NCBI GenBank assembly: GCA_002344005.1
Contig: DDTD01000046.1
Coordinates: 66,403 to 130,402 of the forward strand
Direction of reading: 5' to 3'
DNA length: 64,000 nt
From: Ignavibacteria bacterium UBA2373
GTDB lineage: Bacteria > Bacteroidota > Ignavibacteria > Kapaibacteriales > UBA961
This document shows, one piece after another, positions 16,944-48,887 of this stretch. The position numbers were made by a program, and so were the translations under genes. The notes under the pieces were generated by a model. That model saw only the letters and a list, made by a program, of their open reading frames with translations. It had not been told where the DNA came from and searched no databases. The first letter of the stretch is position 1; every line of letters starts with the position of its first letter.

Positions 16944-17645
16944 TTAACGACGGTCGCCGAAAAGGCGTAACAAATATATAAACAAATTGATGAAATCTAA
17001 ATAAAGGCGAAGCGCACCAAGAATACTCGCTTTGCGTGCAATTTCTGTTCCCATCATTTCTACTTCCCATTCTTCCTTGATTTTTTGTGTATCATAAGCC
17101 GTTAAACCAACGAATACCAAAACACCAATAACCGAAATGGCGAAATGTAAAGCGGAACTTGCCAAAAAGATATTCACCACACTTGCAATAATCAATCCGA
17201 TGACACCCATTATGAAAAAGCTGCCCATAGATGTCAAATCGCGCTTAGTGGTAAATCCATAGACACTCATGGCACCAAAGGTCGCCGCACATATAAAAAA
17301 TGTACTCGCTATAGACTCCGATGTGTAAATAGCTGCTAATGTGGCAAGCGTTAATCCATTCAATCCCGCATACAATAAAAATGTGCCCGATGCCATGGCG
17401 GAACTCATACGCTCTATTGCGCCCGATAGCCACATCACCAGCAATACCTGTACGCCAAAACCAACCCAGATAAGCCAACTGTTTTCAAAAAGAATGCTCC
17501 AATATGTTTCTGAAGTGACAGCCCAACCCGCCACTACACCGGTAAGTGCCAATCCACCTACCATCCATCCATACACCCGCGCCAAATAGGTTCTTTGCGC
17601 CTCTGCCAATGCAGACTGAACTTGTTGTACTTGCGTGTCCAACAT
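16944..17645 (-). CDS. Bax inhibitor-1/YccA family membrane protein
   Basis: Seven predicted TM helices; the N-terminal YLARVYGWMVGGLALTGV and overall pattern are typical of the BI-1/YccA family. A hairpin plus T-run terminator lies downstream at 16880-16920. Confidence 0.7.
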   Translation of the reverse strand: MLDTQVQQVQSALAEAQRTYLARVYGWMVGGLALTGVVAGWAVTSETYWSILFENSWLIWVGFGVQVLLVMWLSGAIERMSSAMASGTFLLYAGLNGLTLATLAAIYTSESIASTFFICAATFGAMSVYGFTTKRDLTSMGSFFIMGVIGLIIASVVNIFLASSALHFAISVIGVLVFVGLTAYDTQKIKEEWEVEMMGTEIARKASILGALRLYLDFINLFIYLLRLFGDRR

Positions 17646-17778
17646 ACGATTTTCTCCTAAAAAATAAATATGAGACGATAACTTTACTAATTACAACGAT
17701 ATTGTACTATGCAATATATGGTTTTTTACGATTTCCGCTGCCTTTCATTGTAAAACGAACAAACCGCCAACGCTCAAC

Positions 17779-18801
17779 TTAATGGATAACAACACACATA
17801 CGTGTTTGTTCTTCGCAATGAAGTGTATAGATGCCATTTGGTAAAGATTCCACCGATAATCGTGCAGAATTACCAAAGCGTTGTAAAGGTAATAGTGTTT
17901 TTTCGCCCGTCATTGTGACCACAGTTATTTCGTCACATGCTGTGTGCAAACCATCTATGGTAACAATATTGCTGCTCGGCTGCGGATACACAGATAAAGC
18001 AATTCTTTTATATTGTTCCTGTTCTTCAACAGAAACGGCTCCACTATTCACCATCAACGCTATCGTTTCTTCAAAAAACACATTCATCGTTTCCACATCC
18101 ATAAACCAAGGGTCAAATGTCGAGATTATGACATTCCCGCCGGACACTCCTTTTTTCATCCACATAGATTTCTTTCCGCCAAAGACATAATCCGACGGAC
18201 CCATACTATACAGTGGAATAATATCCTCACGAATATCACAAGCATCCGCATACCATAAATTGCCCGAAGTCCATGTCAGCGTATCAGTCACACTGCCTTT
18301 CGGAATATGGGCTGCAAGCAAAGGCAAGCCAATATCATTATCGTTTTTTTTGGATTCACCCACAAAACGCATTATACCAAAATATTCATAAGCATAATCC
18401 TCACTTGTAAACATTTTCGGAGCGTCGCCATAACGGTCTGACAAAAAATCATTACCCATAATCCACACATGAACACCGCGTTCCAACAAATTTGGAATCA
18501 TCACATTATCGGATTTAGTACCGTTCCACAATGCTGTTCCCACTGCTGTATTAGCACAATACCACACAACAATATCACCTTTATTCAAAGAATCAAACAC
18601 CGTTGGCGCATCCACTCCGGTAACAAACTCTTTAATTTCGGCTTGAGGCAAAGATTGCGCAGCAAGCGTCACGGCATTTTTCACTCGCGGATAATGATCC
18701 GGTTTCGAGTATGTGTCATCATCAACAAGAAGAATTCGTTGTCCCCATAAGTCAACACTGCATAAGTACATCAATGCACAAAACACAATACCTATTTTCA
18801 T
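17779..18801 (-). CDS. Secreted hypothetical protein with T9SS-type C-terminal sorting domain
   Basis: N-terminal signal peptide. C-terminal ~80 aa carry ALSVYPQPSSNIVTI...LPNGIYTLHC, resembling the Por/T9SS CTD (YPNP and GxY motifs). Confidence 0.5.
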   Translation of the reverse strand: MKIGIVFCALMYLCSVDLWGQRILLVDDDTYSKPDHYPRVKNAVTLAAQSLPQAEIKEFVTGVDAPTVFDSLNKGDIVVWYCANTAVGTALWNGTKSDNVMIPNLLERGVHVWIMGNDFLSDRYGDAPKMFTSEDYAYEYFGIMRFVGESKKNDNDIGLPLLAAHIPKGSVTDTLTWTSGNLWYADACDIREDIIPLYSMGPSDYVFGGKKSMWMKKGVSGGNVIISTFDPWFMDVETMNVFFEETIALMVNSGAVSVEEQEQYKRIALSVYPQPSSNIVTIDGLHTACDEITVVTMTGEKTLLPLQRFGNSARLSVESLPNGIYTLHCEEQTRMCVVIH

Positions 18802-18804
18802 AGA

Positions 18805-20274
18805 TTATGCCCCCCGAGCAATAGACAAAAATTCATCATAAAAAACAGAAGTAGCAATAATACCTTTTTCAAAATTCTCCAAAGAAAAATGTTCATCAGG
18901 TGAATGGGCATTTTCAGTATTAAGACCAAAACCCATCAATACTGTCGGTGCATTAAGTATGGTATCGAATAATAAACATACGGGAATAGAGCCACCTTCA
19001 CGACTCAACACAGGTTTTGCATTATAGGCATACTCTAATGCTTTTACCGCTGCTTTGACGCCATCGCTGTCACGGGGTGTCAAGGCAGGATCTGCTCCAT
19101 GCAAATTCGTCACTTTTACTTTCATCGTCGGTGGTGCAATAGTGCGTATATGCTCTTCAAACAAAGCAGCAATAGTATCCGTTTTCTGATGAGGCACTAA
19201 ACGCATGGAAATTTTTGCCGTTGCTTTTGATGGCAATACCGTTTTGGCTCCCTCACCGATAAAACCGCCCCATATACCATTCACATCCAAAGTGGGACGC
19301 GCACCGGTACGCTCATACGTCGAATAGCCAAATTCACCATACGTAGAAGAAATATCCAATTCATCGCAATATGCCTGATCATTATAGGGCAAACGTGCAA
19401 AATCCTCACGCTCCTCTTGTGTTAATGGCACAACATCACCATAAAAACCCGGAATAGTAATGCGTCCGAAACCGTCTTTCAACCGTGCAATAGTTTCTGC
19501 CAAAGCATTAATAGGATTATGCACGGCACCACCGAATGTGCCGGAATGTAAATCACGATTAGGACCCGTAAATTCCACTTCCATATAACAAAGACCACGC
19601 AGACCATAGACCAAAGAAGGTAAACCCGGAGCAAAAATCGGTGTGTCGGAAATCAGCACTGTATCGCAACGAAGCATCTCACGATATTCGTTCATAAACG
19701 GCTCTAAATTTGGGCTGCCTATCTCCTCTTCGCCCTCGATAAGCAATTTCACATTCACCGGCAAAGAACCGCGCTCGGCAAAAAGTGCTTCCAATGCTTT
19801 CAAATGCAAAAACACTTGCCCCTTATCATCCGTTGCCCCGCGAGCAAATACCTTACCATCACGAAACACAGGTTCAAAAGGAGGATTAGTCCATAAATGT
19901 AAGGGATCAACGGGCTGAACATCATAATGACCATAAAAAAGAACCGTCGGCGCATCAGCACCCGCACCAAGCCATTCGGCATAGACAATAGGATGACCCG
20001 GCGTGGGATATATTCTTGTTTCCGTCATGCCTATAGCACGGCAATGATCGGCTATCCATTCAGCACAGCGTTGCACATCCGCCGCATTCGACGGCTCAGT
20101 ACTGATACTTGGTATTGACAATAATTCCGTTAGCTCTTTCAACATCCGCTCTTTATTCTTTGCGATAAATGATTCTGTCATGGAAATATCCTTTGTAAAA
20201 CATGCAATAATATCAGCAAAAATAGCCACCACCACAGAAATACTGCCCAAATACCATTGATGAGTGAGTATCAA
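18805..20274 (-). CDS. M20-family metallopeptidase (dipeptidase/DapE-ArgE-like)
   Basis: HYDVQP, GATDDKG, EGEEEIGS and the dimerisation-domain pattern characteristic of peptidase M20; 489 aa. Confidence 0.75.
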   Translation of the reverse strand: MILTHQWYLGSISVVVAIFADIIACFTKDISMTESFIAKNKERMLKELTELLSIPSISTEPSNAADVQRCAEWIADHCRAIGMTETRIYPTPGHPIVYAEWLGAGADAPTVLFYGHYDVQPVDPLHLWTNPPFEPVFRDGKVFARGATDDKGQVFLHLKALEALFAERGSLPVNVKLLIEGEEEIGSPNLEPFMNEYREMLRCDTVLISDTPIFAPGLPSLVYGLRGLCYMEVEFTGPNRDLHSGTFGGAVHNPINALAETIARLKDGFGRITIPGFYGDVVPLTQEEREDFARLPYNDQAYCDELDISSTYGEFGYSTYERTGARPTLDVNGIWGGFIGEGAKTVLPSKATAKISMRLVPHQKTDTIAALFEEHIRTIAPPTMKVKVTNLHGADPALTPRDSDGVKAAVKALEYAYNAKPVLSREGGSIPVCLLFDTILNAPTVLMGFGLNTENAHSPDEHFSLENFEKGIIATSVFYDEFLSIARGA

Positions 20275-20330
20275 CTACCATTCACTTACTCCCTACTTGG
20301 GCAGCGACGTAACCAAAAAAACGCAATGGC

Positions 20331-20742
20331 TTAACTTCTATATCTCTCCCCTTTTCTTCTATGCTCGTCGGATTAACTTCTATATCAGTCGTCTCATTTG
20401 CTATGGCTTACTTTTTATCTTCTATGCTCGACGGCTCATTTTTTATACTCGTCGGATTAACTTCTATGCTCGACGGCTCACTTGCTATGGCTTGCTTTTT
20501 ATCTTCTATGCCTGTCGGATTAACTTCTATGCTCGTCGGATTAACTTCTATCTCAGTCTGCTCACTTTCTATGGCTGTCTGCTCATCTTCTATGCTCGTC
20601 GGATGACTTGCTATGGCTGTCGGATTAACTTCTATACCTGTCTGCTCAACTTCTATGCTCGACGGCTCATCGTCTATACTCGTCGGATGACTTACTATAT
20701 GCAGAACTTTATCATCTATGCGCAGAACTTGATCAACTATAC
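20331..20742. repeat. Tandem array of ~20 copies of a 21-bp unit (consensus TTCTATGCTCGTCGGATTAAC)
   Basis: The 21-bp periodicity is visible directly. The array is open as heptad-repeat ORFs on both strands (minus: SIEVNPT; plus: FYARRIN). Confidence 0.9.
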
Positions 20743-20945
20743 GTCCAGATGGTCTCATGCCGCGCCCAGATGGTCTTCTGCCGCGTCCAGATGGTCTCTC
20801 GCCGCGTCCAGATGCTCTCTCGCCGCATCCAGATGGTCTTTTGCCACGTCCAGATGGTCTCTCGCCGCATCCAGATGGTCTTCTGCCACGTCCAGATGGT
20901 CTTTTGCTGCGCCCAGATGGTCTCTCGCCGCATCCAGATGGTCAA
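20743..20945. repeat. Tandem array of ~10 copies of a second 21-bp unit (consensus CCAGATGGTCTCTCGCCGCGT)
   Basis: Abuts the first array directly. Open as PRPDGLL (plus) and DHLDAAR (minus) heptad ORFs. Followed by a Lys/Glu-rich ORF tail to 21179. Confidence 0.9.
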
Positions 20946-21180
20946 TTTTCAGGGAAAGTTGCCAACAATCACCCCCCAGAATCCAAAAATCCACCCCCAG
21001 AAGGTAAAAAACGAGGAAAAGAACAGAACAAGCGAACTAAAGATGAAAACGAGCAAGCGAAAGAAGCAGAAAAACGAGGAAAAGAAGCAGCGCAAACACT
21101 CATGGCAAAAGAGCAGCAATACACAGATATTCAGATGCGTAGAATAGAAGGGAAAAAGAGTAGCGGCGAAGTTTTCTGAT

Positions 21181-21505
21181 TAAATCCCGCAGGGATGGAA
21201 TGTTTATAGAAATAAATACATCCACCCCGTCAGACTGCGTCTGACACCCCTCAATGAGGGGAATTTTTGAAACGCAATAGCGGATAAATCCCGCAGGGAT
21301 GGAATGTTAATAGAAAAGGATGTAAAAAAATATAAAATCCCGCAGGGATGAAAGGTTTATAGAAATAAATACATCCACCCCGTCAGACTGCGTCTGACAC
21401 CGAGCAATGAGAACCCACCCCGTCCTTCGGACACCCCTCCGATGGATGGGATGAAATTCAATAGTTCATAAATCCCAAAGGGATTGAACGTTTATAGAAT
21501 TTGCG
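21181..21505. repeat. Cluster of REP/BIME-like palindromic units (GC-rich mini-hairpins with 3-nt loops) in an AT-rich background
   Basis: Three copies of AAATCCCGCAGGGATGGAATGTTTATAGAA. Two copies of ATCCACCCCGTCAGACTGCGTCTGACACC. CCCCTCAATGAGGGG, GTCCTTCGGAC and AATCCCAAAGGGATT are also present. The same modules recur at 23716-23952. Confidence 0.8.
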
Positions 21506-21530
21506 TTTGATGTGATGGGCGAATTCCCGT

Positions 21531-21563
21531 AAACCTATAAGGTTTTCAAAACCTTATAGGTTT
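21531..21563. promoter_or_regulatory. Perfect 16-bp-arm inverted repeat AAACCTATAAGGTTTT-C-AAAACCTTATAGGTTT (candidate operator site or strong hairpin)
   Basis: Both arms are identical in reverse complement with a 1-nt spacer. The repeat lies ~160 bp upstream of the first toxin cassette. Confidence 0.5.
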
Positions 21564-21719
21564 GGATAAGGAAATCCATCTTTATGACCCGCGCTTGGCG
21601 CAATGACGATTCATTGAGTCAATACTCTCGCATCAGCCAAAAAATGAGTATTTTTGGCAAGGCATCAAAAGCATTGAGCAAAGCCACTCAACCATAAGCG
21701 GGCGAAAAATGTTGATGAG

Positions 21720-22076
21720 ATGGCGGAGGGTAGAAGTTATGTTAATTTAGCTAGTGAATCACGAACAGCTCACATAATTGCAAGTGATGCAACAGGTGGT
21801 GGACATGCATGGTTTGGAAGTTGGAAAAGCTTTTCAAATGGAATTACGGGTCAAAAAACAATGTTTCCGATTACTTGGAGTAAAAATAAAATTATGCATG
21901 CTGCTTCGGATGTTTTAGTAAATAACCCAATTGCAAGGCAAACAGGATCAGCCGGAAGTCTTTTTGAAAGAAGTGGAAGACTATCAAGATTCACAACTTT
22001 TGGGGAATATCAAGGAGTTAAAATAAAAGTAGTTTGGGATAATACAGATATAATTACAGCACTTCCTATAAAATGA
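21720..22076 (+). CDS. Orphan polymorphic-toxin C-terminal domain, bacterial EndoU-like RNase (118 aa, no delivery or N-terminal region)
   Basis: GGGHAW...KTMFPITWSKNKIMHAASDVL...GVKIKVVWDNTDIITALP matches the EndoU_bacteria pattern (GGxH, K..FP..Ws..kI, C-terminal ...iTAyP). An in-frame stop lies 45 nt upstream of the ATG, so the gene is a standalone module. AT-rich. Confidence 0.55.
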   Translation: MAEGRSYVNLASESRTAHIIASDATGGGHAWFGSWKSFSNGITGQKTMFPITWSKNKIMHAASDVLVNNPIARQTGSAGSLFERSGRLSRFTTFGEYQGVKIKVVWDNTDIITALPIK

Positions 22077-22360
22077 ATAAAATGAATAGTAAAAAAGAGA
22101 ATATGATAATTCAATTATTAAAAAATTTACTCTCTAATGCTTTAATGCTTGGAGTTAAAGGGGAATGTAAATTAATAGTTGATGAGTATATCGAATTTAA
22201 TGAATTCGGCTTAGCGTTCGAACACATTGTTTATGAGTTACATGAAAATAATATTCGAATCCCCAATGAACTTTATTTCGACTTTAAAAATGTTGCGGAT
22301 TTGATGGAGCTTAATGAGAATGAATATCAGCCTAGGTTATTAGAATTAATTTTGAAATAA
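22073..22360 (+). CDS. Putative cognate immunity protein (95 aa)
   Basis: Start ATG overlaps the toxin stop (ATGA). Small acidic protein, the typical toxin-immunity arrangement. Confidence 0.5.
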   Translation: MNKMNSKKENMIIQLLKNLLSNALMLGVKGECKLIVDEYIEFNEFGLAFEHIVYELHENNIRIPNELYFDFKNVADLMELNENEYQPRLLELILK

Positions 22361-22473
22361 TCTTATGTAGTTGCCGCTAAGACGATTACGAAACTGTTAA
22401 ACCCTGCTATCAAAATAACTGAGAGCGGTTTAGCACATACATTGGATAGGCATACTTTTAATGGTATTCCAAG

Positions 22474-22698
22474 ATGGCTGATAAGAGTAAGTGTTTTGAT
22501 GCTTCTGAGGTTGAAAGCCTAATTCGGCAGGGAACACAAATGCCAATGAAAAGACAGATTAATGGAAACTTCTCTCGTGTTGTAAATGCAGGAAGAAATA
22601 TTGGCATAGACAGAGCAACAGGGAATCTAACATCAATTTACACAATCATTACTAATGGGCAAGGCAATTTAATTACTGCATTACCAGGTATCCCATAA
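22474..22698 (+). CDS. Second, truncated orphan toxin C-terminal fragment (74 aa), related to the C-terminal half of the first module
   Basis: PMKRQINGNF...TSIYTIITNGQGNLITALPGIP parallels PIARQTGSAG...KIKVVWDNTDIITALPIK of module 1. It lacks the GGGH/K-FP catalytic N-half. A stop lies 15 nt upstream of the ATG. Confidence 0.45.
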   Translation: MADKSKCFDASEVESLIRQGTQMPMKRQINGNFSRVVNAGRNIGIDRATGNLTSIYTIITNGQGNLITALPGIP

Positions 22699-22709
22699 TA
22701 AGAACAAAT

Positions 22710-22994
22710 ATGGCGTGGACAATCATTTTAGAAGATGAAAATAAAGAACCAATAATCACACTAAGCAATGAGCTTGAGATTAAGTTCAATGACGATAAGA
22801 GTAACTTTAAACTACTTTGCTTCTTAGACGCTTATGGCGACACCATTTTTAACCGCTTACAAATGGATGATTTAATCAAGGATTTACAAAATTTAAATTT
22901 GATAGAAGCTAATCCTCTTTTAGATGAGATCAAAATACTTGCAGAACGCTGCAAAAATGGAGAACATACATATTTAGCCTTTTATGGTGACTAA
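22710..22994 (+). CDS. Putative immunity protein of the second cassette (94 aa)
   Basis: Begins 11 nt after toxin fragment 2; small acidic protein with no similarity to immunity protein 1, as expected for polymorphic cassettes. Confidence 0.45.
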   Translation: MAWTIILEDENKEPIITLSNELEIKFNDDKSNFKLLCFLDAYGDTIFNRLQMDDLIKDLQNLNLIEANPLLDEIKILAERCKNGEHTYLAFYGD

Positions 22995-23043
22995 AGACAA
23001 AAGCCCAGAGTAGGTGGCTACCTCCTTCATTCTTTGAAAACTA

Positions 23044-23079
23044 TGAGACATTTCGATTAGCCCCATCCCGATTTCCCGA
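23044..23079. repeat. 36-bp direct repeat TTGAAAACTATGAGACATTTCGATTAGCCCCATCCC (copy 1), followed by imperfect palindrome GCCCCATCCCGATTTCCCGACGGCGAGAAAAAAAGAGGGGC
   Basis: 34/36 identical to 23716-23751. Both copies lie 10-50 nt after the stop of a cassette gene. Confidence 0.8.
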
Positions 23080-23165
23080 CGGCGAGAAAAAAAGAGGGGC
23101 AAAGTTTTGAGGAATGGAACATCAACATCAAACAATGATAGATAACTTTAATATAAGGTGTTTTT

Positions 23166-23705
23166 ATGAAATATGAATTTAGTGACATGGGAATTCCTGT
23201 GAAGTTTACGAAACAGCAAGAAAAATTAATGAAAAAATTTATCATATCTTTTGTAGAAGGCGTATCAGAAATTTGCAAAGAAAAAATAAATCCTTTTATT
23301 AAAAAAAGATACCATTACTATGAAGCTCGCGGATTGTATATAGGAGCGAGTCACTACAGTTATAATTGGCAGATGCTTGATTATTGTGATTTTAGAAACG
23401 CTAATTTAGCTAATGAATATGATTATGTTGGTACTGAAGGTCCATGTTTAGCATTTTCATTTTGTATTCAAGACGATAAAGAACGTTTCTCGAAAATTCC
23501 AATAGTTGCGACAGTGTTTCTTTGTAAGGTTGAGATATTGTTAGATTATAAAGATTTAGAATATTCATTTACGGTAGATTTTAGAGATGAACATAAGCTT
23601 GAAGAAGTTTTCGAAAAAGAGTTGCAAAATATTTTTGAATTTATCAGTGATTCTGTTGATAATATAATCTACGATATAAACAATAATTGGAAAATAGAAG
23701 AGTGA
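23166..23705 (+). CDS. Hypothetical cassette protein (179 aa), possible orphan immunity protein
   Basis: AT-rich ORF flanked exactly by the two 36-bp direct repeats; no recognisable catalytic motif. Confidence 0.4.
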   Translation: MKYEFSDMGIPVKFTKQQEKLMKKFIISFVEGVSEICKEKINPFIKKRYHYYEARGLYIGASHYSYNWQMLDYCDFRNANLANEYDYVGTEGPCLAFSFCIQDDKERFSKIPIVATVFLCKVEILLDYKDLEYSFTVDFRDEHKLEEVFEKELQNIFEFISDSVDNIIYDINNNWKIEE

Positions 23706-23715
23706 GAAGTAAAAG

Positions 23716-23952
23716 TTGAAAACTATGAGGCATTTCGGTTAGCCCCATCCCTCAATGAGAACCCACCCCGTCCTGCGGACACCCCTCCGATGGATGGTAT
23801 GAAATTCATTGCGTCACGGAATCCCGAAGGGATTGAACGTTTATAGAATTTGTGAAAAATCATCCACCCCGTCAGACTGCGTCTGCCACCCCTCAATGAG
23901 GGGAATTTTGAAATTCATTGCGTCATGGAATCGCAAAAGGATGGAATGATAA
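23716..23952. repeat. Second REP/BIME-like hairpin cluster (direct-repeat copy 2 plus the same hairpin modules as 21181-21505)
   Basis: Contains GAGAACCCACCCCGTCCTGCGGACACCCCTCCGATGGATGG, AATCCCGAAGGGATTGAACGTTTATAGAATTTG, ATCCACCCCGTCAGACTGCGTCTGCCACCCCTCAATGAGGGG and GGAATCGCAAAAGGATGGAATG. All match units in the upstream cluster. Confidence 0.8.
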
Positions 23953-23975
23953 TAGAAAAAACAATCCGATAAGTC

Positions 23976-31473: not shown

Positions 31474-34400
31474 TTATCGCTGTGATTGAAAAATTCTATT
31501 AAATGCACTGGTAGTATAATTTACCGTTGTTTGTGATTTTCGTGCATCGGCAGCATATTTAAACGATCGAGTAAATTGTTGACGACTCTCTTGTTCTTGC
31601 TGCGATTGACCTTGGCGATTATGCGAAGAATATTGTGAATTATGGGACATTTCTTCCTCTTTTTTTCGCACAGTCACTTCCACGCTATCAAGTTGCATGC
31701 CTTGTTTACCAAATTGATCTTTTAATTGAGGAAGCTGTGACTCAATTATCTGTTTCGTTTGCTGTGAATCAACTTGTATTTGTAATTGTGTATCAGAATT
31801 TAAAGTGGAATATCGCACAATGACTGTACCTAACTCTTCAGGTTGCAATACCATACGTACTGTTCCATTTCCTTGTGTTTTTGAGGAAATATATTCATGA
31901 GCCTTATCCGCAAAATGCTGTACCGGTAATAATTCCATTATTTCCATAGATGCAACCTTTTTTATAGTAGGTATGCCGACTTTTTGGACTGGCTGAATAT
32001 GAACATTGTGAGGAATAATGATAGAATCTTGAGAAGGGAAATTACTATTTTCAGTCAAGACAAAATTTTGAGAACTATCTGCTACTCCTAAAGATTGATT
32101 TGAGATTGGTGATAATGTCGTTTGTATTTCATTTTCTACATCAATATTATCACTTTTTGACTTAATACTTGAGTTTTGCTGCAATAGATTGCTTTGATTA
32201 TTAATATTATTCGTTATCTCCCCTCTTGGTACTACTCGCTCAGAAGTAGAGGTAATGAACATATTATTAAAAGTATTGTTTTTTTCTACATTCTGATTCG
32301 CAACTGCATTTTTTAACGAAGAACGATAGTGTGATAATTCTTTTTTGAGTAAACTATTATCTTGGTTTGTTGAATTTTGTTGAGTTAGATTTTCGGACTT
32401 TTTAATTATACCATCATTAAAAACGACTGTTTTTTCATATTCAACAAAAGACAAACCTTTCTTTACTTCAGATTTTTTTTCTACCTCACCGGATATTTGC
32501 TTAGAAACAAAACTTCTTTGTATTTTTTCCGAACCATCGTTTGTTTCCAACGAATTCAAAACGTTCATTTTAACTTCATTGGGAATAGTCTCGACTGATT
32601 TTTCAAGGTGGATCTTTTTTGTATTTCGAGAATCAACTTGAGTGTTCTGTATTATAGCGTCAGATGGAGAAGTAGCACTATCATTATAGCGAATCTTAAA
32701 GACAATATTTTTAACCGGAACACCGACTGACGACGCCTTTTCAATAATGGAATGAAGTGCCATTACCGTATTCGGAATAACTTGATGAGAAGTTTGTATA
32801 TCAGAAGGTGGAGTTACAACAATTGCTGAATTATCATGGGTTTTGTTCTTTAAGACATAGAGTGCACCATCGCTGGTTTGTAATGGCTCATGAACAGTAC
32901 GATCAAAAGCCGAAGTATTAAGTATTTTCACAGCTTTAGAATCAGTATCATCATTGATTGTTAATTCTTCATCATTCTCAATAACTTCCTGTTCATCTAA
33001 GTTCTCCGGAACAATTGATTCATAGGTATTCTTTAGTGTATGAACTAATATTGTATCTGTCGGTTGTATAATTGATTTTGATTTGTCATCATTTTGTTTA
33101 ATAGTATGTTGATTGGTTTTCGATGCAATACTTACATTGTCATCAATTCTACTATCCGTTCTTTCTGTAAAAGGAATATTTGACAAAGTGTTAAGTTGTA
33201 TATTCTCCTTGGTTTTTTTACTGAGATTATGTACACCTTTATTTTTCAAAGATTCCTGTTTAGATAAAGATACTATTTGTGGACTATTGTCATTTTTCAC
33301 CATTACATTGTCATCAACAATACCAGCATCACCATTAAATGTATCATTTTTTGAAACTTGATAAACATTGTTATCTAATTGAGTTGATTTTTTTATCTCA
33401 GTAACAACATTCTCTTTCGAGGACAATGCAACAGTATTAGTTTCTTGACTTTTACCTATAGTAACTCGATCATAAGTAAGCGACTCCGAAGATGTCACGG
33501 TAGCATTTAACTTGTTGTCATTTATAACAGCATTGTCTTCAGCTTCCGTAAGAATCGCATTATTATGAGTATTTGTTGTATTATGAGTAATAGTATTTTT
33601 CGATTTTTGATTAAGTTCTGTCAATAAAGTACTATTACTTTTATCACTGTACAGTAATCCGGCATCAGTTTCTTGTACTTCGTCAACGACAGGTTTAGGC
33701 GGAACCTTATATATTACCTCTGATTTGAAAACTTTATCGTGTTTGACAGTATCTAAGTTATTATCTGAAAATGTATTCTTTTTCTGATTCTGATGTACTT
33801 TCGGTGTATTTCCTACAGCATTCGATTCTCCCTTAGATGCACTACTTTCAACTGAATTAAGATTATTGATAGTTTTTAATAAAATTGCTTCTTCTTCTGG
33901 AGAATATTCAACAGACGGAATATCACGCTTTTTAAATTTCATATTGTTGTCATCTGAATCAAAAACACCATAATCAGATGTATTTTTCACAGTCGAATCA
34001 TCGTTTGAGATAATGTCAGAAATTAATTTTATATCCTGCTTGGAAGTATTTCGAGTACCATTATCAATTGATTCATGAATTATTTGCTCAGTAGATGTAT
34101 TATTTACAACACTATTATAGACCGAGTCTTTTTTAGTCTTATTTACAACAATATTATTGACATTGTTTAAGCCAATATCTTTTAGGCTAATGCTATAAGA
34201 ATCATTATTTTCTAAAGCAGATATCTGCTCAGAATAAACCATATGATTATTTGACTTTTTTTTGTCTGATAAAACATTTAATTCATTTACAGTGCTATTT
34301 TCTTTATAATTTAAGGTATCTGATGAATGTACTTTTTGTTGTCCGTCTATATCATAGTCTTTTAATCTATTACGGGACAGCCTGTCAACAGTATATCCTT

Positions 34401-37400
34401 GCACAGTCTGATTTTTATTCTCTTTTGTATGAAGATCTGAAATATTACTTTCATGCGGTGATCTATACATGATATTATCACTCGAATCAACAGATATTTC
34501 TTCTTGAGAATTGTCTAATATAAGATTTACACGATGTTCTGAACTGTTTTTCTCACCACCGTCTGCTGTCTGACGTGCACCTACTTTATCCGATATAACT
34601 GCGTTTGTAGCAGATTTCACTTTTGCAAATGATAATCTTTCTAATGGTTTTGCACTTTTTTCTTGTATTCCTGATGTTGCTTTGGATTTACTATTACCTT
34701 TCAACAACTCAATTTCTGAACGAACTGTAACAGATTTAGCGGAAAAATCTAATTTCGCCGATGATTCCTCCGAAGAATTATCTATGACAATACTGTGTTC
34801 AGTAAGATTTTTCTTATCACCGTCTGTCTGATGTACACCCAATTTATCAGATGTATCGTTTTCTAATTTTGCAAATAATGATTTCTCTAATGGTTTTGTA
34901 CTTTGTTCTTGTATTCCTGCTACTACTTTGGATTTACTATTACCTTCCAATGACTCAATTTCTGAACGAACAATAACAGATTTAGCGGAAAAATCTAATT
35001 TCGCCGATGATTCCTCCGAAGAATTACCTGTTACAAGAGCAACATTACTTTCTGAAAGATTTTTCTCACCACCATCTGTCTGATGTACACTCAATTTATC
35101 AAATGTATCGTTTTCTGATTTTGTAAATGATGATTTCTCTAATGGTTTTGTACTTTGTTCTTGTATTCGTGCTACTGCTTTGGATTTACTATTACCTTCC
35201 ATTGACTCAATTTCTGAACGAACAATAACAGATTTAGCGGAAAAATCTAATTTCGCCGATAATTCTTCCGAAGAATTATCTGTTACAAGAGCAACATTAT
35301 GTTCTGAAAGATTTTTCTCACCACCGTCTGCTTGATTTACTCCTAAATTATTAGTAAAAACTTCGATTATTTCTTTATCGTCAATAGATTTTGTACTTGA
35401 TGTTTTATGAGTAAACGTATTTGCATACGTTTTAGAGTTATCTCTAGTACTTTCAATAGGAATAGAATTCTCAGTATTGCTTCCGTTTGTGATTTCTTTT
35501 ATTGATTCAGAAAAGAAATGTCCGGATGTTTTTTGAATTATCTTTTCAATACTTCTTTCTGATTCTTCGACATCAATAGTACGATTTGATTGTTTTGATT
35601 TTATTGAAGAAAATTTATCATAATCGCTTTCATTATATTCCGTACCTGTATGTATTTCTACGTTTTCACCTGTTCTTAATACATCTTGAAAAGAAATTTT
35701 GGAGTTTTTTGCATTACCTTGATCTATTGTCTGATCAATAATAGAGTCTTTAGCATATTGCCTAACAGTTTGCTGTTGTTCTAGCGAAATGCTCTTTGCA
35801 ACAAGATTTTTCTCATTATGTTCATTTTGTGATGTTTCACTATATGTTATTTTTTGATTGTTTGCTTGTTGAGATGTATCTGGCATTGACATGACTTTAG
35901 ATTCAGGTCTTTTTTCCTCATTTTGATTATATGATAGATGATTTTCAATCTGAGGATGGTTTATATCCGCGTCAATATCATCATTATAAATATTGTTTTG
36001 CGATGATTTTATTGTTTGAATGATTGAGGTCTTAGTACGGATAGTGCTGTTTTCAATATTTACTGATTTATCATCTTCCTTCAATGTATTCACATACATT
36101 CCTATAGCAGGTGCTTTTTCAGATGATAGTATTTTTGATGTCGTATTTTCAAATTGTGCCACTGTGTTTACTTCATTATTAGTCTTCTTCACTCCGGCAT
36201 TCTTAATTTTTGCTTCTGCATCACTATTATATGCGATGATATTTTCTCTATCGTTCTGACTTTTCAATTCAGACTTATCATGAATAAGCTGTTCATTGAC
36301 TATGTCTGTTTTTTCCAATGTATTTCTCGAATTGCTTGAATTGTTGTATTTATTTGCATTCGATATCGGTTGAAATTTTTCTGTTAATTGTGCATGCTTT
36401 TCATTATTTCTATGAAACTCAAGACTATTTTCTTCAGGAAATAATTTTTCAATGTATTCTTCAATAGCAGCATTCTGCAAACTCGGATCTACCGTTGTTA
36501 TTGATATTGATTTCCTTGTATTTTTATTATCTATATTATCTGTATTGGAATTTTCATCTCCAACAGGCTGATTAATTTTGTTTTGTTGTTCATCACCTAT
36601 ATTATCTAAATTGGAATTTTCATTTCCAACAAGTTGGTTAATCTTGTTTTGTGATATATATGTGTCTTTAGCTCGACTTTTATTTACTACATTTTCTTGC
36701 AATGAATCACTCCCATGATAACTCATTGCTTTATCTTTATACGGGAATGTATTATTCTTTACGGCTTTGTCTGATTCACTATTATTTACATTTTGTTGAG
36801 ACTGCAGGACTCCACCTTTGATAGTATCATTATAAAACCTCATTGGTATATTCTGTTCTTCATTTGTACCATTTTGAAGCGGTAATGATGTATTTGATGC
36901 TTTATTTGACCCTTGAGGTAGATTTAAGTTCTTATTAGCAGTTATACTTTCATTTGTCGAAGTTATTGTATCAGGATTTGATATAGACTCAGCATGATTA
37001 TTTAGATTTACGACTTTAGTATGCTGTGGAAGTACAGTTTTCTCTTGTAAACCATTATTAACCGGTTTATGATATACTGATCCAAATACTTGTTCAAAGC
37101 TTACTTCCGTATTTTGATTGTTGTACTTTACAGTCACTTGATCTTTACTAAAGGAACTCTCCAACGGTTGTGATTTTTGTTGCATGGGTATCCATAAATT
37201 TTGGATTACCATATCAATAATGTGCGGTATTTCCTCCTGTGATGTTGTCGAAATATCAACACGTACTTGAATATCCTCATTATGTGAGGAAAGTAAATTG
37301 ATTTGAACTTTACTTTTATTGTGCACCTTCATTGAATCACTAAAATCTCGTATCATGGATTCAATTTCTGAAGATTTTTCCTTATTTTTCGATTGTGTAT

Positions 37401-37971
37401 TTGATAGAACAATATCTGTGGCACTATCATTTTTTTGTCTGTAAGAATCCGTCTTTTTACTATCAATGTTTATAGCATCAACTAATCCACCTACATTCGA
37501 GTTTTCTTTTGTTTTCTGAATCTCTGTATCGGTAGTGACTTGCTTTGCAAGAGTGGGATTATTGGCATCGAACAGTTGGGATTGTTTTTTCACTTTTTGA
37601 TTATCCAGACCTTGAAACAACGATAGCTCTTCTCCCTCCGAATCGTTTGAGGATTGGGATTTCACCACTATATCATATACATATTCCCATTGGTTATCTA
37701 TATCTGTCGTTGGTTGAAATATTCTAGCTGTATTTGATTGTACAACTTGCTCATTTTGTGTATAAGACGAATTTTCTTTTAATAAAGTAACAGGTACTGT
37801 GATATTGTTACGTGTGCTTTTAGCATCAATCGTTGATTGAAGCAGATTTGAAAAGGCAAATATTGGTGGAGAATAATCACCATCTGGCGATTTAGACACA
37901 GAGGCATCCGTAAGATTTCCGGATGAGTTTGTGAGAAAATGTATGTCTATTTTCATTGTTGCGTCCTGCAA
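31474..37971 (-). CDS. fliK: Giant FliK-like hook-length control protein (2165 aa): FliK C-terminal domain preceded by ~1900 aa of Asn/Ser/Thr/Lys-rich low-complexity sequence with internal tandem repeats
   Basis: The C-terminal ~150 aa (GNGTVRMVLQPEELGTVIVRYS...LQIQVDSQQTKQIIESQLPQLKDQFGKQGMQLDSVEVTV, then a Gln-rich tail) match the FliK/Flg_hook domain. The gene sits between fliJ/MotE-like and flgD, as fliK does in fla operons. Uninterrupted ORF. Confidence 0.65.
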   Translation of the reverse strand: MQDATMKIDIHFLTNSSGNLTDASVSKSPDGDYSPPIFAFSNLLQSTIDAKSTRNNITVPVTLLKENSSYTQNEQVVQSNTARIFQPTTDIDNQWEYVYDIVVKSQSSNDSEGEELSLFQGLDNQKVKKQSQLFDANNPTLAKQVTTDTEIQKTKENSNVGGLVDAINIDSKKTDSYRQKNDSATDIVLSNTQSKNKEKSSEIESMIRDFSDSMKVHNKSKVQINLLSSHNEDIQVRVDISTTSQEEIPHIIDMVIQNLWIPMQQKSQPLESSFSKDQVTVKYNNQNTEVSFEQVFGSVYHKPVNNGLQEKTVLPQHTKVVNLNNHAESISNPDTITSTNESITANKNLNLPQGSNKASNTSLPLQNGTNEEQNIPMRFYNDTIKGGVLQSQQNVNNSESDKAVKNNTFPYKDKAMSYHGSDSLQENVVNKSRAKDTYISQNKINQLVGNENSNLDNIGDEQQNKINQPVGDENSNTDNIDNKNTRKSISITTVDPSLQNAAIEEYIEKLFPEENSLEFHRNNEKHAQLTEKFQPISNANKYNNSSNSRNTLEKTDIVNEQLIHDKSELKSQNDRENIIAYNSDAEAKIKNAGVKKTNNEVNTVAQFENTTSKILSSEKAPAIGMYVNTLKEDDKSVNIENSTIRTKTSIIQTIKSSQNNIYNDDIDADINHPQIENHLSYNQNEEKRPESKVMSMPDTSQQANNQKITYSETSQNEHNEKNLVAKSISLEQQQTVRQYAKDSIIDQTIDQGNAKNSKISFQDVLRTGENVEIHTGTEYNESDYDKFSSIKSKQSNRTIDVEESERSIEKIIQKTSGHFFSESIKEITNGSNTENSIPIESTRDNSKTYANTFTHKTSSTKSIDDKEIIEVFTNNLGVNQADGGEKNLSEHNVALVTDNSSEELSAKLDFSAKSVIVRSEIESMEGNSKSKAVARIQEQSTKPLEKSSFTKSENDTFDKLSVHQTDGGEKNLSESNVALVTGNSSEESSAKLDFSAKSVIVRSEIESLEGNSKSKVVAGIQEQSTKPLEKSLFAKLENDTSDKLGVHQTDGDKKNLTEHSIVIDNSSEESSAKLDFSAKSVTVRSEIELLKGNSKSKATSGIQEKSAKPLERLSFAKVKSATNAVISDKVGARQTADGGEKNSSEHRVNLILDNSQEEISVDSSDNIMYRSPHESNISDLHTKENKNQTVQGYTVDRLSRNRLKDYDIDGQQKVHSSDTLNYKENSTVNELNVLSDKKKSNNHMVYSEQISALENNDSYSISLKDIGLNNVNNIVVNKTKKDSVYNSVVNNTSTEQIIHESIDNGTRNTSKQDIKLISDIISNDDSTVKNTSDYGVFDSDDNNMKFKKRDIPSVEYSPEEEAILLKTINNLNSVESSASKGESNAVGNTPKVHQNQKKNTFSDNNLDTVKHDKVFKSEVIYKVPPKPVVDEVQETDAGLLYSDKSNSTLLTELNQKSKNTITHNTTNTHNNAILTEAEDNAVINDNKLNATVTSSESLTYDRVTIGKSQETNTVALSSKENVVTEIKKSTQLDNNVYQVSKNDTFNGDAGIVDDNVMVKNDNSPQIVSLSKQESLKNKGVHNLSKKTKENIQLNTLSNIPFTERTDSRIDDNVSIASKTNQHTIKQNDDKSKSIIQPTDTILVHTLKNTYESIVPENLDEQEVIENDEELTINDDTDSKAVKILNTSAFDRTVHEPLQTSDGALYVLKNKTHDNSAIVVTPPSDIQTSHQVIPNTVMALHSIIEKASSVGVPVKNIVFKIRYNDSATSPSDAIIQNTQVDSRNTKKIHLEKSVETIPNEVKMNVLNSLETNDGSEKIQRSFVSKQISGEVEKKSEVKKGLSFVEYEKTVVFNDGIIKKSENLTQQNSTNQDNSLLKKELSHYRSSLKNAVANQNVEKNNTFNNMFITSTSERVVPRGEITNNINNQSNLLQQNSSIKSKSDNIDVENEIQTTLSPISNQSLGVADSSQNFVLTENSNFPSQDSIIIPHNVHIQPVQKVGIPTIKKVASMEIMELLPVQHFADKAHEYISSKTQGNGTVRMVLQPEELGTVIVRYSTLNSDTQLQIQVDSQQTKQIIESQLPQLKDQFGKQGMQLDSVEVTVRKKEEEMSHNSQYSSHNRQGQSQQEQESRQQFTRSFKYAADARKSQTTVNYTTSAFNRIFQSQR

Positions 37972-45517: not shown

Positions 45518-45736
45518 ACTTACTTTTCCTCGACAATTACTTCTCGCAACACTTCCGCTCCCAAGTTCAATGCCAATCAATGCTCATAAACTATCACATA
45601 ACACAAAGCAATCCGAAACCTTGATTTCGCTACACTTACCAAAACATAACCACATAATTCACCCTCATAAACAAAGGACAATACCATCCATCTGAACAAT
45701 AATAACCATCACAAACAATCAAACAATCAGCAAATA

Positions 45737-45926
45737 ATTACGAATGGTCAATTATCAATTACGAATGGTCAATTATCAATTACGGATGGTTAATGGTCAA
45801 TTACGGATGGTTAATGGTCAATTACGGATGGTCAATGGTCAATTACGGATGGTTAATGGTCAATTACGGATGGTTAATGGTCAATTACGAATGGTTAAGT
45901 ATCAATTACGAATGGTTAAGTATCAA
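45737..45926. repeat. Tandem array of ~9 copies of a 21-bp unit (AATGGTCAATTACGGATGGTT), 220-410 bp upstream of the flgB start
   Basis: Perfect 21-bp periodicity. Open in two plus-strand frames (MVNGQLR / MVNYGWL heptads). Closed in all three minus-strand frames. Confidence 0.9.
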
Positions 45927-45959
45927 CAATAATCAGGCACGCAATAACTGATTCAGCAT

Positions 45960-46150
45960 ACGGTCGGACATATCCAAAAGGGCATTGGAACTCGCAAAAA
46001 GGGCTTCCGTCTCACGCAGCAACACAACAGAACGCGACAATAACTCCGACGATTCCTCCAATAGCTTCGCCGACTCCAACAATAAAGCGTCGGACTCCTG
46101 CAAAAGCCCATCAGAGCTATATAATAATTGCTCGGACTTGCTCACAAGAG
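45960..46150. repeat. Degenerate 21-bp periodic array (CAAAAG-G/C-xxTTxxGxACTC family), diverged relative of the 46715-47090 array
   Basis: Nine successive 21-mers share CAAAAG...ACT positions. The minus-strand ORF 45933..46229 reads as heptads SxxLLxE. Confidence 0.65.
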
Positions 46151-48829: not shown

Positions 48830-48887
48830 GTGATAATAGATAATTGACAATTGACCATTCGTAATTGACAATTGATAATTCGTAATT
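48830..48887. repeat. Short inverted partial copy (~2.5 units) of the 45737-45926 21-bp repeat
   Basis: AATTGACAATTGACCATTCGTAATTGACAATTGATAATTCGTAATT is the reverse complement, at about 85-90% identity, of AATTACGAATGGTCAATTATCAATTACGAATGGTCAATT at 45737-45782. Confidence 0.7.

Follow-up and report, generated by a model that had tools for sequence, protein, structure and literature searches.

A dispersed mosaic element of 21-bp phased repeats precedes strain-specific defence and toxin genes in Kapaibacterium-like bacteria

Upstream of an M20 peptidase gene in an uncultured Bacteroidota lineage, two abutting arrays of 21-bp units are open as heptad-repeat reading frames on both strands, which raises the question of whether this DNA encodes a protein, acts as DNA, or merely looks like a gene. 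A first-pass annotation had left two options standing, a length-variable heptad-repeat protein or an iteron-like non-coding array with a period of two helical turns. Here, we analyze the arrays within their window, i.e., the whole stretch of 64,000 nucleotides in which they lie, together with related loci from other assemblies. Together, the arrays form the core of a single copy of a mosaic element of ca. 0.85 kb, phased at 21 bp, that is dispersed and lineage-specific.

Both arrays were found where first described (Table 1), and the copy numbers of about 20 and 10 agree with ca. 19 units in the TTCTAT register followed by nine units in the CCAGATGG register and a truncated tenth. The repeat motifs are not expected by chance, with 0 matches across 100 shuffles. 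The arrays are, however, not perfect as had been claimed: TRF reports 67% matches for the first and 82% for the second, and the first is better described by a higher-order period of 84 bp (81% matches). Near-perfect identity of the units does not hold either. The window contains two exact copies of TTCTATGCTCGTCGGATTAAC and one of CCAGATGGTCTCTCGCCGCGT, and units within three mismatches of either sequence number 5 of ca. 19 in the first array and 7 of 9 in the second. The units are old and diverged, and the proposed recent expansion or ongoing homogenization does not fit because at least 216 substitutions separate distinct units. The feature also extends beyond the boundaries initially assigned to it. 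Lag-21 analysis revealed continuous 21-nt periodicity from 20324 to 21131, running through a leader, the arrays T1 and T2, an invariant block of 36 nt and a degenerate tail rich in purines. That tail had been read as the Lys/Glu tail of an ORF.

Table 1. Coordinates of the element, its neighbours and the ORFs that cross it (window positions)
Feature	Position	Strand	Description
M20 peptidase gene	18805-20181	-	Pfam assignment; divergent from the arrays, which sit upstream of it
Leader	20182-20335		Separates the M20 start codon from the repeat units; kept in all M20-locus variants
T1 array	20336-20744		19 units in the TTCTAT register plus 10 nt
T2a array	20745-20933		9 units of CCAGATGGTCT plus 10 variable nt; tenth unit truncated
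36-nt block	20934-20969		CCAGATGGTCAATTTTCAGGGAAAGTTGCCAACAAT; directly after the T2a array
Purine-rich tail	20970-21179		Degenerate 21-nt units
REP/BIME-like hairpin cluster	21180-21500		ATCCCGCAGGGAT...TTTATAGAAA units alternating with the dual hairpin CCACCCCGTC..GACACCCCTC..GAGGGG
Strain-specific cargo	21720-23705	+	EndoU-type toxin domain (Pfam PF14436), small immunity-like ORFs, further orphan cassettes
Right-hand REP cluster	23730-23960
ORF, 247 aa	20264-21007	+	FYARRIN/SRWSLAA; codon-aligned antisense of the SIEVNPT frame
ORF, 140 aa	20757-21179	+	M-(PRPDGLx)9-PDGQFSGKVANN-PPE...-K/E tail; predicted by gene callers on 17 contigs
ORF, 116 aa	20408-20758	-	SIEVNPT-type acidic heptads; TAA end within a repeat unit
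ORF, 79 aa	20755-20994	-	DHLDAAR; antisense to the 140-aa ORF

The modules of the element follow a fixed order of leader, T1 array, optional middle array, T2 array, 36-nt block and purine-rich tail. The leader, which is spanned by the homology between the window and copy L099, carries an 11-nt motif (TCACTTACTCC, 20282-20292) that recurs in the leader of copies at an LpxA-like locus. Within the T1 unit, CTAT alone is invariant (ca. 2 bits), with 0.4-1.7 bits at the remaining positions, and the final 2.5 units (20693-20744, GCAGAACTT type) serve as junction units, invariably followed by a T2a array. The first 11 nt of the T2a unit are essentially invariant, codon third positions included; other element copies carry T2b (CCAGATGGTCACCGTACAGAC) or T2c (CCAGAAGTTCAAGCGCAGCAC) in its place. 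The block is identical in every recovered T2a and T2b copy except for the L093 lineage, in which L093 has one G-to-C change and L102 further changes, a degree of conservation to be read in light of the fact that the 24-nt search pattern falls within the block itself. The version in T2c copies is 21 nt shorter. Phasing continues into the tail: the distance from the block to a GAGCAGC anchor is 135, 156, 177 or 198 nt in eight copies and always equals 9 modulo 21. Tail homology to L088, a second copy in the same MAG, stops at ca. 21168, and in the adjoining hairpin cluster the downstream DNA of some strains changes to a different sequence (L003).

Repeat arrays might arise as assembly artefacts through collapse or expansion, and some data point that way, as many short-read contigs terminate inside the array (L106-L109, L097, L098) and L090 contains an NN gap and fewer units than L091. 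We nevertheless consider this origin extremely improbable. At least six independent assemblies, from different samples and pipelines, reproduce the array with 0 differences over 20181-21229, a 668-kb contig of GCA_016713455.1 carries it with a single SNP, and the units are diverged enough for unique placement.

As the annotation had anticipated, the tract is length-variable among strains at the same M20 locus. Between M20 and hrcA, the T1/T2 unit counts are 18/10, 16/6, 14/9, 20/4, 20/9 and 9/at least 3, which corresponds to 9 to 20 units for T1 and about 4 to 10 for T2. The M20 genes of these variants are ca. 98-99% identical in DNA; the M20 protein of L087 and L107 is identical to that of the window, and changes between strains amount to 15 synonymous and 0 nonsynonymous in one comparison and 11 and 1 in another. 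The anticipated phasing at two helical turns is strictly kept, every length difference being a multiple of 21 in arrays and tail alike. Some variants at this locus have T2a swapped for T2c, and their tails and islands also differ. L099 and L116 share an island and differ chiefly in the number of T2c units (4 vs 9), and L089 and L094 have both flanks in common and different internal modules. The element gains and loses whole 21-bp units between strains, conceivably through replication slippage or unequal crossing-over, and modules (T2 type, middle array, tail) are swapped between copies at different chromosomal sites, possibly through ectopic gene conversion. At the same locus of the next Kapaibacterium species (L010, 62% M20 identity), no 21-nt-periodic tract was detected.

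The same architecture occurs in ca. 10 genomic contexts, all on Candidatus Kapaibacterium-like contigs from activated sludge, and two assemblies contain at least two copies each (GCA_017302855.1 with L007 and L088; GCA_016713455.1 with L089 and L118). Within the window, the element cores are confined to the element, which rules out a genome-wide motif such as a Chi site or an uptake sequence. Neither Rfam nor plasmid and phage collections yielded a described family for the element; viral contigs likewise gave no match, and a phage or plasmid origin was rejected. A literature search on Kapabacteria and 21-bp repeats returned nothing relevant, and the element is undescribed there. The idea of an iteron also loses ground in these contexts, as none of the ca. 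10 shows a Rep/Par gene or a plasmid or phage setting.

What the contexts do share is the kind of gene that follows. In 9 of the 9 with readable downstream DNA, the element immediately precedes the next genes in the same orientation, and these are mostly defence or toxin genes, including Gabija, type IIG/III/IV restriction and EndoU cassettes. Downstream matches include GajA (E = 1e-222) and type III methyltransferases (1e-133 and 1.5e-181), further a type IIG restriction-modification gene (5e-32), Mrr, a HEAT-methyltransferase with CfrBI, and EndoU. In other strains, the island slot of the window is occupied by a type IIG restriction-modification system with a PDC-S45-like gene. The Gabija-associated copy L088 has only the hrcA flank in common with the window locus. 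Alignments place the switch from conserved flank to strain-specific island DNA inside the element: by megablast, homology between the window and L099 stops at 20698 and returns at 23960, which is the point, 16 nt beyond the hrcA stop codon, at which homology with other strains resumes. A more sensitive blastn search against L116 traced weaker homology out to ca. 21077, and in L093 and L102 divergence begins immediately past the block.

We then asked whether any of the reading frames behaves like a gene. All four ORFs listed by the annotation exist. Two of them can be dealt with briefly: the 247-aa ORF has negative codon-usage scores and is judged spurious, and the 79-aa frame is open in all T2 types, with Pfam matches that all fall below threshold and no other support. 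Across the element, substitution patterns gave no indication of purifying selection in any frame. The pN/pS ratio of the tail is 0.75-1.13 across all six frames, compared with 0-0.03 in the M20 control, and tail substitutions are spread evenly over codon positions (e.g., 12/15/13 and 24/29/28). The invariant cores form contiguous runs that take in wobble sites, T1 and T2 lack 3-periodicity, and the middle arrays show it only weakly (0.95, 1.50 and 1.31 bits). In T1 and the middle array, no frame is both stop-free and provided with a usable start codon in every copy. Among-unit pN/pS (0.46-2.4) produced no clear winning frame in a test without power, and we did not use it as evidence because a likely genuine coiled-coil array in the window is equally ambiguous. 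A Shine-Dalgarno test is similarly weak, since only 15 of 39 real genes carry the motif. Codon-usage log-odds, on the other hand, are positive in two frames only, SIEVNPT on the minus strand and PDG on the plus strand, with values like those of real genes. As to a hydrophobic a/d heptad pattern, each unit of the PDG and IEVNPTS heptads includes a Pro, and the antisense DHLDAAR/LELLGAA frame is amphipathic. AlphaFold2 models of the 140-aa and 116-aa ORFs are not decisive because confidence is low and no fold emerges.

The PDG frame deserves the closer look. On one reading, the 140-aa ORF would be the real first gene of each island and encode a small intrinsically disordered protein, laid out as Met, variable Pro-Asp-Gly (or Pro-Glu-Val) heptads, QFSGKVANN and a Lys/Glu-rich helix and subject to fast or diversifying evolution, with T1 and the middle arrays as its upstream region. 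Of the first 9 copies examined, 8 have an ATG where T1 meets T2, and the frame stays open across T2 and the block in all copies but L088, where a 1-nt deletion shifts it. This openness is uninformative, however, since none of the six frames contains a stop in T2a units, and stops seldom form in the purine-rich tail. Where stops do occur, they lie early and at different tail positions (L092, L095 and L098), and DNA homology runs on past them. Every length change is in frame, as is the stop-free hairpin-repeat sequence inside some tails, and in T2 and the tail this frame alone has a positive codon-usage score (+0.18 and +0.07 bits per codon, respectively). Yet its tail pN/pS is 0.88 with differences even over codon positions, and its CCA GAT GGT core is almost without synonymous variation while the nonsynonymous change of GGT to GCT is frequent. 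The ORF lies 45-175 nt upstream of co-oriented cargo genes wherever no REP cluster intervenes, but the DNA ahead of its ATG is pyrimidine-rich, unlike that of real genes in the window. The AlphaFold2 model (pLDDT 61) is mostly coil with a single confident helix at residues 94-134 (pLDDT 82-89). Genuine proteins with PDG heptads exist, e.g., P0012; among 1.84 billion representatives, the relatives of the 140-aa ORF are ca. 12 small ORFs from copies of the same element, the remaining matches are unrelated PDG-repeat proteins, and no Pfam or PADLOC family was matched. On balance, we find it rather unlikely that this ORF is the first gene of the islands; it is probably a by-product of the repeats and at most a fast-evolving disordered protein.

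The minus strand offers a second candidate, an acidic protein of heptad repeats (SIEVNPT, IEDEQTA and similar) whose gene would lie upstream of M20 and be transcribed in its direction; the protein might be secreted or surface-exposed and length-variable. Codon usage in T1 favours its frame most (+0.22 bits per codon), the strand is purine-rich like real genes here, the frame is open across both arrays in L087 and L094, and some gene callers report the 116-aa ORF. Other copies speak against it. In L087 and L095, there is no ATG, GTG or TTG for more than 150 codons and a stop in the block closes the frame, and elsewhere the 116-aa frame is likewise without a start codon or interrupted. The TAA-bearing unit recurs and has been propagated; in L088, L099 and L116, it lies right at the junction, and the rest of T1 is therefore untranslatable. 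Every T2b unit contains a stop, the middle arrays of L091 and L092 contain several, and the Ile codon is always ATA, without synonymous variation. The element also occurs at loci where no M20 gene follows, and the 116-aa ORF returned one weak protein match (AlphaFold2 pLDDT 63, pTM 0.12). Copies without a start codon or with an immediate stop bring this reading close to refutation, and we regard it as very improbable. A role of T1 as silent donor for a larger expressed repeat protein was rejected, as a 5.8-billion-protein collection holds no larger SIEVNPT-repeat protein.

Overall, the heptad-repeat protein first envisaged is unsupported by substitution patterns, frame openness or homologues. 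The element is probably not a conserved protein-coding gene, its ORFs being by-products of stop-free repeat units, and the 140-aa and 116-aa "hypothetical proteins" annotated on these contigs are accordingly probably not genes.

The 21-nt register holds over at least 216 inferred substitutions without a small indel, which is hard to square with a purely neutral element, and this strictness therefore points to a constraint on reading frame or helical phase. The 21-bp spacing may reflect binding by a putative protein. A more specific reading takes the arrays for phased sites at which each 21 bp offers one short core to a putative DNA-binding protein, whose nucleoprotein structure would control neighbouring genes or recruit a recombinase, in principle like iterons, centromeres or NIME/dRS3 repeats. 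Each array type pairs a contiguous invariant core (CTAT in T1, CCAGATGGTCT in T2, TCTGGATT in the middle array) with a spacer that varies in sequence but not in length, and the register is unbroken over up to 29 units, across array boundaries and on into the tail. The same core is present in both orientations because the middle array repeats T2b in inverted orientation (complementarity of 71% over 68 nt). The T1 core, however, is only 4 bp long, the T2 types differ in half of the unit, and slippage in whole units could in part account for the constancy of unit length. No candidate gene for a binding protein is conserved beside the element in any context, and the confinement of the cores and the lack of plasmid or phage similarity noted above also count against this reading, which, judged from sequence features, seems unlikely to us.

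RNA-level explanations fared no better. A structured RNA was rejected, since nothing exceeded the Rfam threshold and the RNA of neither strand folds better than shuffles (z = +1.8 and +1.1), a result that is compatible with function as DNA-binding sites. A promoter and terminator scan gave the same counts as in shuffles. The units abut head to tail without spacers and do not form a CRISPR array; the sole Rfam match is a sub-threshold CRISPR-DR25 hit (22.4 bits vs a cut-off of 36) to the hairpin repeat at 21467-21490, outside the arrays.

The account that we favour, and hold with about even confidence, is that the element, by analogy with BOX and NIME, is a non-coding mosaic minisatellite and works as a recombination junction at the borders of defence islands. 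Acting as DNA, it would supply a transportable segment of homology at which defence cassettes could be exchanged, in a NIME-like role. A bolder version posits a dedicated platform for capture and exchange of defence cassettes in Bacteroidota, in which the phased arrays and the invariant 36-nt block would assemble a nucleoprotein complex with an unlinked recombinase and target crossovers to the island border, in a manner resembling integrons or NIMEs and based on phased tandem repeats. In a variant, the arms would encode a divergent pair of hypervariable heptad peptides in defence. We rate these bolder proposals, taken together, as quite unlikely.

If the recombination-junction reading is true, the element represents an undescribed interspersed repeat family in an uncultured Bacteroidota lineage that marks sites of anti-phage and toxin gene exchange between co-existing strains. 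It would then serve as a sequence tag with which to find the defence-island hotspots of Kapabacteria genomes, offer a natural VNTR marker by which strains could be followed in wastewater reactors, and provide a test case for recombination targeted by phased repeats, which has been proposed but never proven for neisserial NIME arrays.

The likeness to BOX, MIRU and NIME is a functional analogy rather than homology and was drawn from descriptions of these families. BOX elements of Streptococcus pneumoniae (boxA - boxB(n) - boxC) carry variable boxB arrays that create ORFs, some of which are transcribed (PMC3049150). Like our element, they are dispersed intergenic composites with conserved end modules and a variable tandem middle that cluster with other small repeats, and their copy number varies between strains, more so in longer arrays (PMC3049150). 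The BOX module, however, measures 45 bp compared with 21 bp here, and BOX reaches more than 100 copies per genome, compared with a handful. BOX elements have predicted stem-loops and IS-related terminal inverted repeats, whereas the RNA of our element folds like shuffles and its arms are weakly inverted-similar. Unlike the element, BOX has no reported link to defence islands.

In Neisseria, variable genes lie next to NIME arrays, restriction-modification genes are among the cargo of minimal mobile elements, and the arrays have been proposed to promote exchange of adjacent genes via homologous recombination or a specific recombinase (PMC1797815). Both NIME/dRS3 and our element are short-repeat arrays of changing repeat number beside strain-variable genes, and the neisserial system, too, places restriction-modification genes in exchangeable slots with silent toxin cassettes nearby (PMC1797815). 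NIMEs are, however, 20-bp inverted repeats with heterogeneous spacers of 50-150 bp, whereas the element consists of head-to-tail 21-bp units in strict phase. The neisserial system also belongs to another phylum, and a recombinase acting on dRS3 is known there, in contrast to none for the element.

MIRUs are intergenic repeats inside operons that contain small ORFs, with units of 46-101 bp and usually one unit type per locus. They are not known to form a composite of leader, array, block and tail or to be associated with defence islands. MIRU-VNTR loci have been described as mycobacterial interspersed minisatellites with strain-specific copy numbers (PMC3635867), a trait that the element shares. 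Iterons and centromere arrays resemble the element in having direct repeats of ca. 20 bp at two helical turns with a conserved core per unit; iterons, however, are few, well-conserved full-length sites, whereas the element has 20-30 units with a core of 4-11 bp. Finally, the position of tandem direct repeats immediately upstream of a co-oriented defence or toxin gene recalls ToxI. A type III toxin-antitoxin system was rejected, as no ToxN-like protein was seen among the downstream genes. ToxI-type units measure ca. 34-45 nt and pair with one specific endoribonuclease family, whereas the genes downstream of the element are mutually unrelated (Gabija, restriction-modification types IIG/III/IV and EndoU).

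The two arrays between the M20 peptidase gene (18805-20181, minus strand) and hrcA form part of an element of about 0.85 kb, built in a 21-nt phase, which we read with middling confidence as a non-coding, interspersed mosaic minisatellite that is at best 'pseudo-coding'. The first-pass annotation had described the arrays as perfect 21-bp tandem repeats. Every ORF it named is present in the window, and the arrays themselves proved degenerate: TRF matches amount to 67% for T1 and 82% for T2a, T1 is better fitted by an 84-bp higher-order period (81% matches), and exact copies in the window number two for the first proposed unit and one for the second. Only CTAT is invariant in T1, and T2a units consist of 11 invariant nucleotides (CCAGATGGTCT) followed by 10 variable ones. 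The 21-nt periodicity extends past 20933, with lag-21 autocorrelation unbroken over 20324-21131, so that the 'Lys/Glu tail' of the 140-aa plus-strand ORF (20757-21179) also consists of 21-nt units in degenerate form.

Contigs matching the window come from Candidatus Kapaibacterium sp. UWPOB_KAPA1 (GCA_017302855.1) and GCA_002344465.1, of bioreactor or activated sludge origin, within the family Kapaibacteriaceae of the Bacteroidota. The 140-aa ORF, used as a protein query, recovered small ORFs in further genomic contexts, an exact scan with a 24-mer from the conserved block added eight metagenomic loci, and a profile run against 1.84 billion representative proteins contributed a few additional copies (L-numbers below denote contigs or loci compared with the window). 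All copies share a common build of leader, T1, optional middle array, T2, block and purine-rich tail. A dual-hairpin, REP-like repeat often follows the tail or interrupts it, and within the tails of several copies it lies in frame, translating as TTPSFGHPSDGGD. The element is dispersed to several sites, with at least two copies in each of two MAGs, GCA_017302855.1 (L007, L088) and GCA_016713455.1 (L089, L118). Searches of viral, plasmid and phage collections returned nothing similar to it, and in the next Kapaibacterium species of the genome collection (L010, 62% M20 identity) no 21-nt-periodic tract lies beside the M20 gene. At 11140-11340 in L094, some 350 bp downstream from the element, lies a second copy of the distal tail together with a dual-hairpin repeat, which suggests that the hairpin repeat and adjoining tail DNA can be copied jointly.

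Element parts and other features of the window
Feature	Position	Description
T1 array	20336-20744	19 units in TTCTAT register + 10 nt
T2a array	20745-20933	9 units in CCAGATGG register
Middle array (optional)		unit ATCATCTGGATTCATACGCTC
T2a type		unit CCAGATGGTCTCTCGCCGCGT
T2b type		unit CCAGATGGTCACCGTACAGAC
T2c type		unit CCAGAAGTTCAAGCGCAGCAC
Block		CCAGATGGTCAATTTTCAGGGAAAGTTGCCAACAAT; 21 nt shorter in T2c copies
BIME-like clusters	21180-21500; 23730-23960	two small repeat types
First BIME-like type		ATCCCGCAGGGAT hairpin, then TTTATAGAAA
Second BIME-like type		dual hairpin CCACCCCGTC..GAC ACCCCTC..GAGGGG
BIME-like unit	21467-21490	sub-threshold CRISPR-DR25 match
Toxin/immunity island	21500-23705	orphan polymorphic-toxin modules
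Pre-toxin-like stretch	21585-21700	conserved; recurs in L102
EndoU domain	21720-22076	118 aa
Second toxin-tip-like ORF	22474-22698	74 aa
Flg_hook ORF	31474-37971 (minus)	2165 aa
Repeat in Flg_hook ORF	34621-35351	252 bp, 2.9 copies
Second array group	45641-46013; 46612-47178	units AATTACGGATGGTTAATGGTC x9 (coding score in no frame) and TTGGCGGACTGCTTCAAAAGC x17
Array ORF	46714-47112 (minus)	reads MSIARAVRKTFEAVRK...
Strain-variable segment	46600-48750	array ORF and neighbouring gene
Gene of unknown function	47546-48748	~386-400 aa; neighbour of array ORF
Short 7-bp/21-bp repeat	48831-48887	TGATAAT / TAATTGACAATTGACAATTCG

Strains compared at the M20-hrcA locus have M20 genes that are 98-99% identical (synonymous to nonsynonymous changes 15:0 and 11:1). 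T1 ranges there from 9 to 20 units and the T2-phase array from 4 to 10, bearing out the earlier proposal of a length-variable array. Copies change by whole units and exchange modules. In L099 and L116 the island is the same and the number of T2c units is the main difference; the L095 tail, about 32% different from that of the window, is similar to the tail of L093, which lies at a different locus; and L089 and L094 share both flanks and differ in internal modules. These patterns indicate probable whole-unit slippage or unequal crossing-over, together with patchy gene conversion between copies. The array interior is the end point of many short-read contigs. That the arrays are an artefact of collapsed or expanded repeats in assembly, an outcome the first-pass annotation had allowed for, is hardly credible, as six or more contigs from independent assemblies carry the array sequence without a difference and a 668-kb contig (L118; GCA_016713455.1, JADJPC010000002.1) has it with a single SNP.

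Unit numbers at the M20-hrcA locus and cargo beside element copies
Locus	T1 units	T2-phase units	T2 type	Cargo
Window	18 (19 + 10 nt in TTCTAT register)	10 (9 in CCAGATGG register)	T2a	EndoU toxin domain, immunity-like ORFs, orphan cassettes
L087	16	6	T2a	
L095	14	9	T2a	
L099	20	4	T2c	type IIG restriction-modification enzyme, PDC-S45-like gene
L116 = L121	20	9	T2c	as L099
L107	9	at least 3	T2c	
L088				Gabija (GajA E=1e-222, UvrD-like partner); adjoins same hrcA
L090, L091				HEAT-methyltransferase, CfrBI-type endonuclease
L092, L098				type III methyltransferases
L101				Mrr
L093				AAA_33 kinase, Thg1-like enzyme
L102				toxin-cassette sequence with homology to 21585-21700 of the window

The element lies at the edge of islands of defence and toxin genes that vary from strain to strain. 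A megablast comparison of the window with L099 shows homology over 17000-20698 (96%) and again from 23960 onward (99.9%), with T2, tail, REP clusters and cargo genes all replaced in between; against L116, a more sensitive blastn traces homology of a weaker kind as far as about 21077, inside the tail. L093 and L102 have left flank, arrays and block in common, and diverge directly after the block. Downstream DNA is readable in nine contexts, and in each of them the gene that follows has the same orientation as the tail; in 7-8 of about 10 contexts this gene is a recognised defence or toxin gene. We infer that the element may serve as a portable recombination junction. Its behaviour is like that of pneumococcal BOX elements, in which end modules enclose a variable tandem boxB array with strain polymorphism and with ORFs when the array is large (PMC3049150), and of neisserial NIME arrays and minimal mobile elements, in which repeat arrays, proposed as recombination promoters, flank exchangeable genes including restriction-modification systems (PMC1797815). 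It probably belongs to neither family: Rfam and the plasmid and phage collections gave no sign of a sequence relationship, and unit length and phasing, phylum and the lack of predicted stem-loops set it apart from their descriptions. Iterons, a CRISPR array and a ToxI-type antitoxin were also considered and rejected, as no Rep or Par gene, no spacers and no cognate toxin, respectively, were found.

The window's own island also holds small immunity-like ORFs, has no full-length toxin gene upstream, and is bracketed by the BIME-like clusters. In L003, from position 8938 (about 21484 in the window) onward, the element and first REP units are joined to a different downstream region (an 85-aa ORF, urocanase, an M50 peptidase and others) that replaces the toxin island and hrcA; the junction reflects a rearrangement at the REP cluster, or else the assembly is chimeric.

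A signature of protein-level selection is absent from the element. Substitution patterns, a check proposed in the first-pass annotation, went against coding: tail differences between copies fall evenly across the three codon positions (pN/pS 0.75-1.13 in all six frames), and the conserved cores are contiguous, wobble positions included. The commonest change inside the T2 core, GGT to GCT, is nonsynonymous. Among-unit pN/pS was left unused as powerless: the coiled-coil array at 46718-47095, which is likely genuine, gave values no clearer. We regard it as rather unlikely that the plus-strand ORF encodes a fast-evolving, small disordered protein. In its favour, log-odds of codon usage, with the window's own genes as training set, are above zero in the plus-strand PDG frame through T2 (+0.18) and tail (+0.07), and the T1/T2 junction has an ATG in eight of the nine first-examined copies. 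On the other side, the ORF ends prematurely at different sites in L092, L095 and L098 as DNA homology runs on, Pfam and PADLOC gave no matches for element ORFs, and AlphaFold2 predicts coil except for one helix in the tail. An acidic protein encoded on the minus strand is very unlikely. Its SIEVNPT frame is the other positive-scoring one (+0.22 in T1; remaining frames are not positive), and a weak 3-periodicity in the middle arrays also favours coding; the Ile codon of this frame is ATA in every case, essentially no protein relatives of it were found, and throughout T1 and the middle arrays each frame is, in at least one copy, interrupted by stops or devoid of a start codon. A TAA-bearing T1 unit has been propagated, and lies directly at the junction in L088, L099 and L116.

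The T1/T2 junction is the point from which both positive-scoring frames run outward. T2b recurs in inverted form as the middle array (71% complementarity across 68 nt), and tail units recur inverted as the 'KKQA'-type T1 units (74-87%). The whole thus resembles an extended, decayed palindrome whose 21-nt units may all go back to an AATCCAGATG-containing unit, and this palindrome-like structure accounts for the mirrored purine skew and mirrored codon-usage signal. Such a build fits an ancient inverted duplication of heptad-coding sequence, which would not in itself establish present-day translation.

The register is unbroken from leader to block in every copy, crossing array-type boundaries (29, 23, 24, 17, 16, 24, 19 and 8 units in continuous register), and the distance from block to GAGCAGC anchor in eight tails is 135, 156, 177 or 198 nt, always 9 mod 21. 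Distinct units are separated by a minimum of 216 substitutions. Since indels in unconstrained bacterial DNA occur at roughly 5-10% of the substitution frequency, one would expect at least ten small indels. Only two kinds of off-phase indel were found, a 1-nt deletion in one L088 T2c unit and several 1-nt deletions in homopolymer-like runs of the L118 tail, which break the 140-aa ORF there and could reflect either errors of long-read sequencing or true frameshifts. As the expected indels are largely missing, either the phase is constrained or change is strongly biased by mechanism towards whole units. We infer that the 21-bp phase stems from a constraint on the DNA itself, for instance protein binding; that binding of protein to phased arrays is the element's primary function seems unlikely.

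A second group of 21-nt-periodic arrays lies upstream of the flagellar rod/FliE/FliF operon. Its minus-strand ORF has a canonical a/d heptad pattern and a positive codon-usage score, and matches only generic coiled-coil entries in Pfam. Comparison of L110 and L114 with L111 showed the segment with this ORF (called 128 aa) and the neighbouring gene to be missing from two other strains with identical FlgC, so that this second 21-bp-array locus is also strain-variable. Arrays of period 18, 20, 22 or 24 were looked for across the 64 kb, and none was found. The 2165-aa ORF matches Pfam Flg_hook (FliK-like hook-length protein), and its internal repeat, at 252 = 12 x 21, is likewise a multiple of the heptad length. 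The short 7-bp/21-bp repeat is located between two genes.
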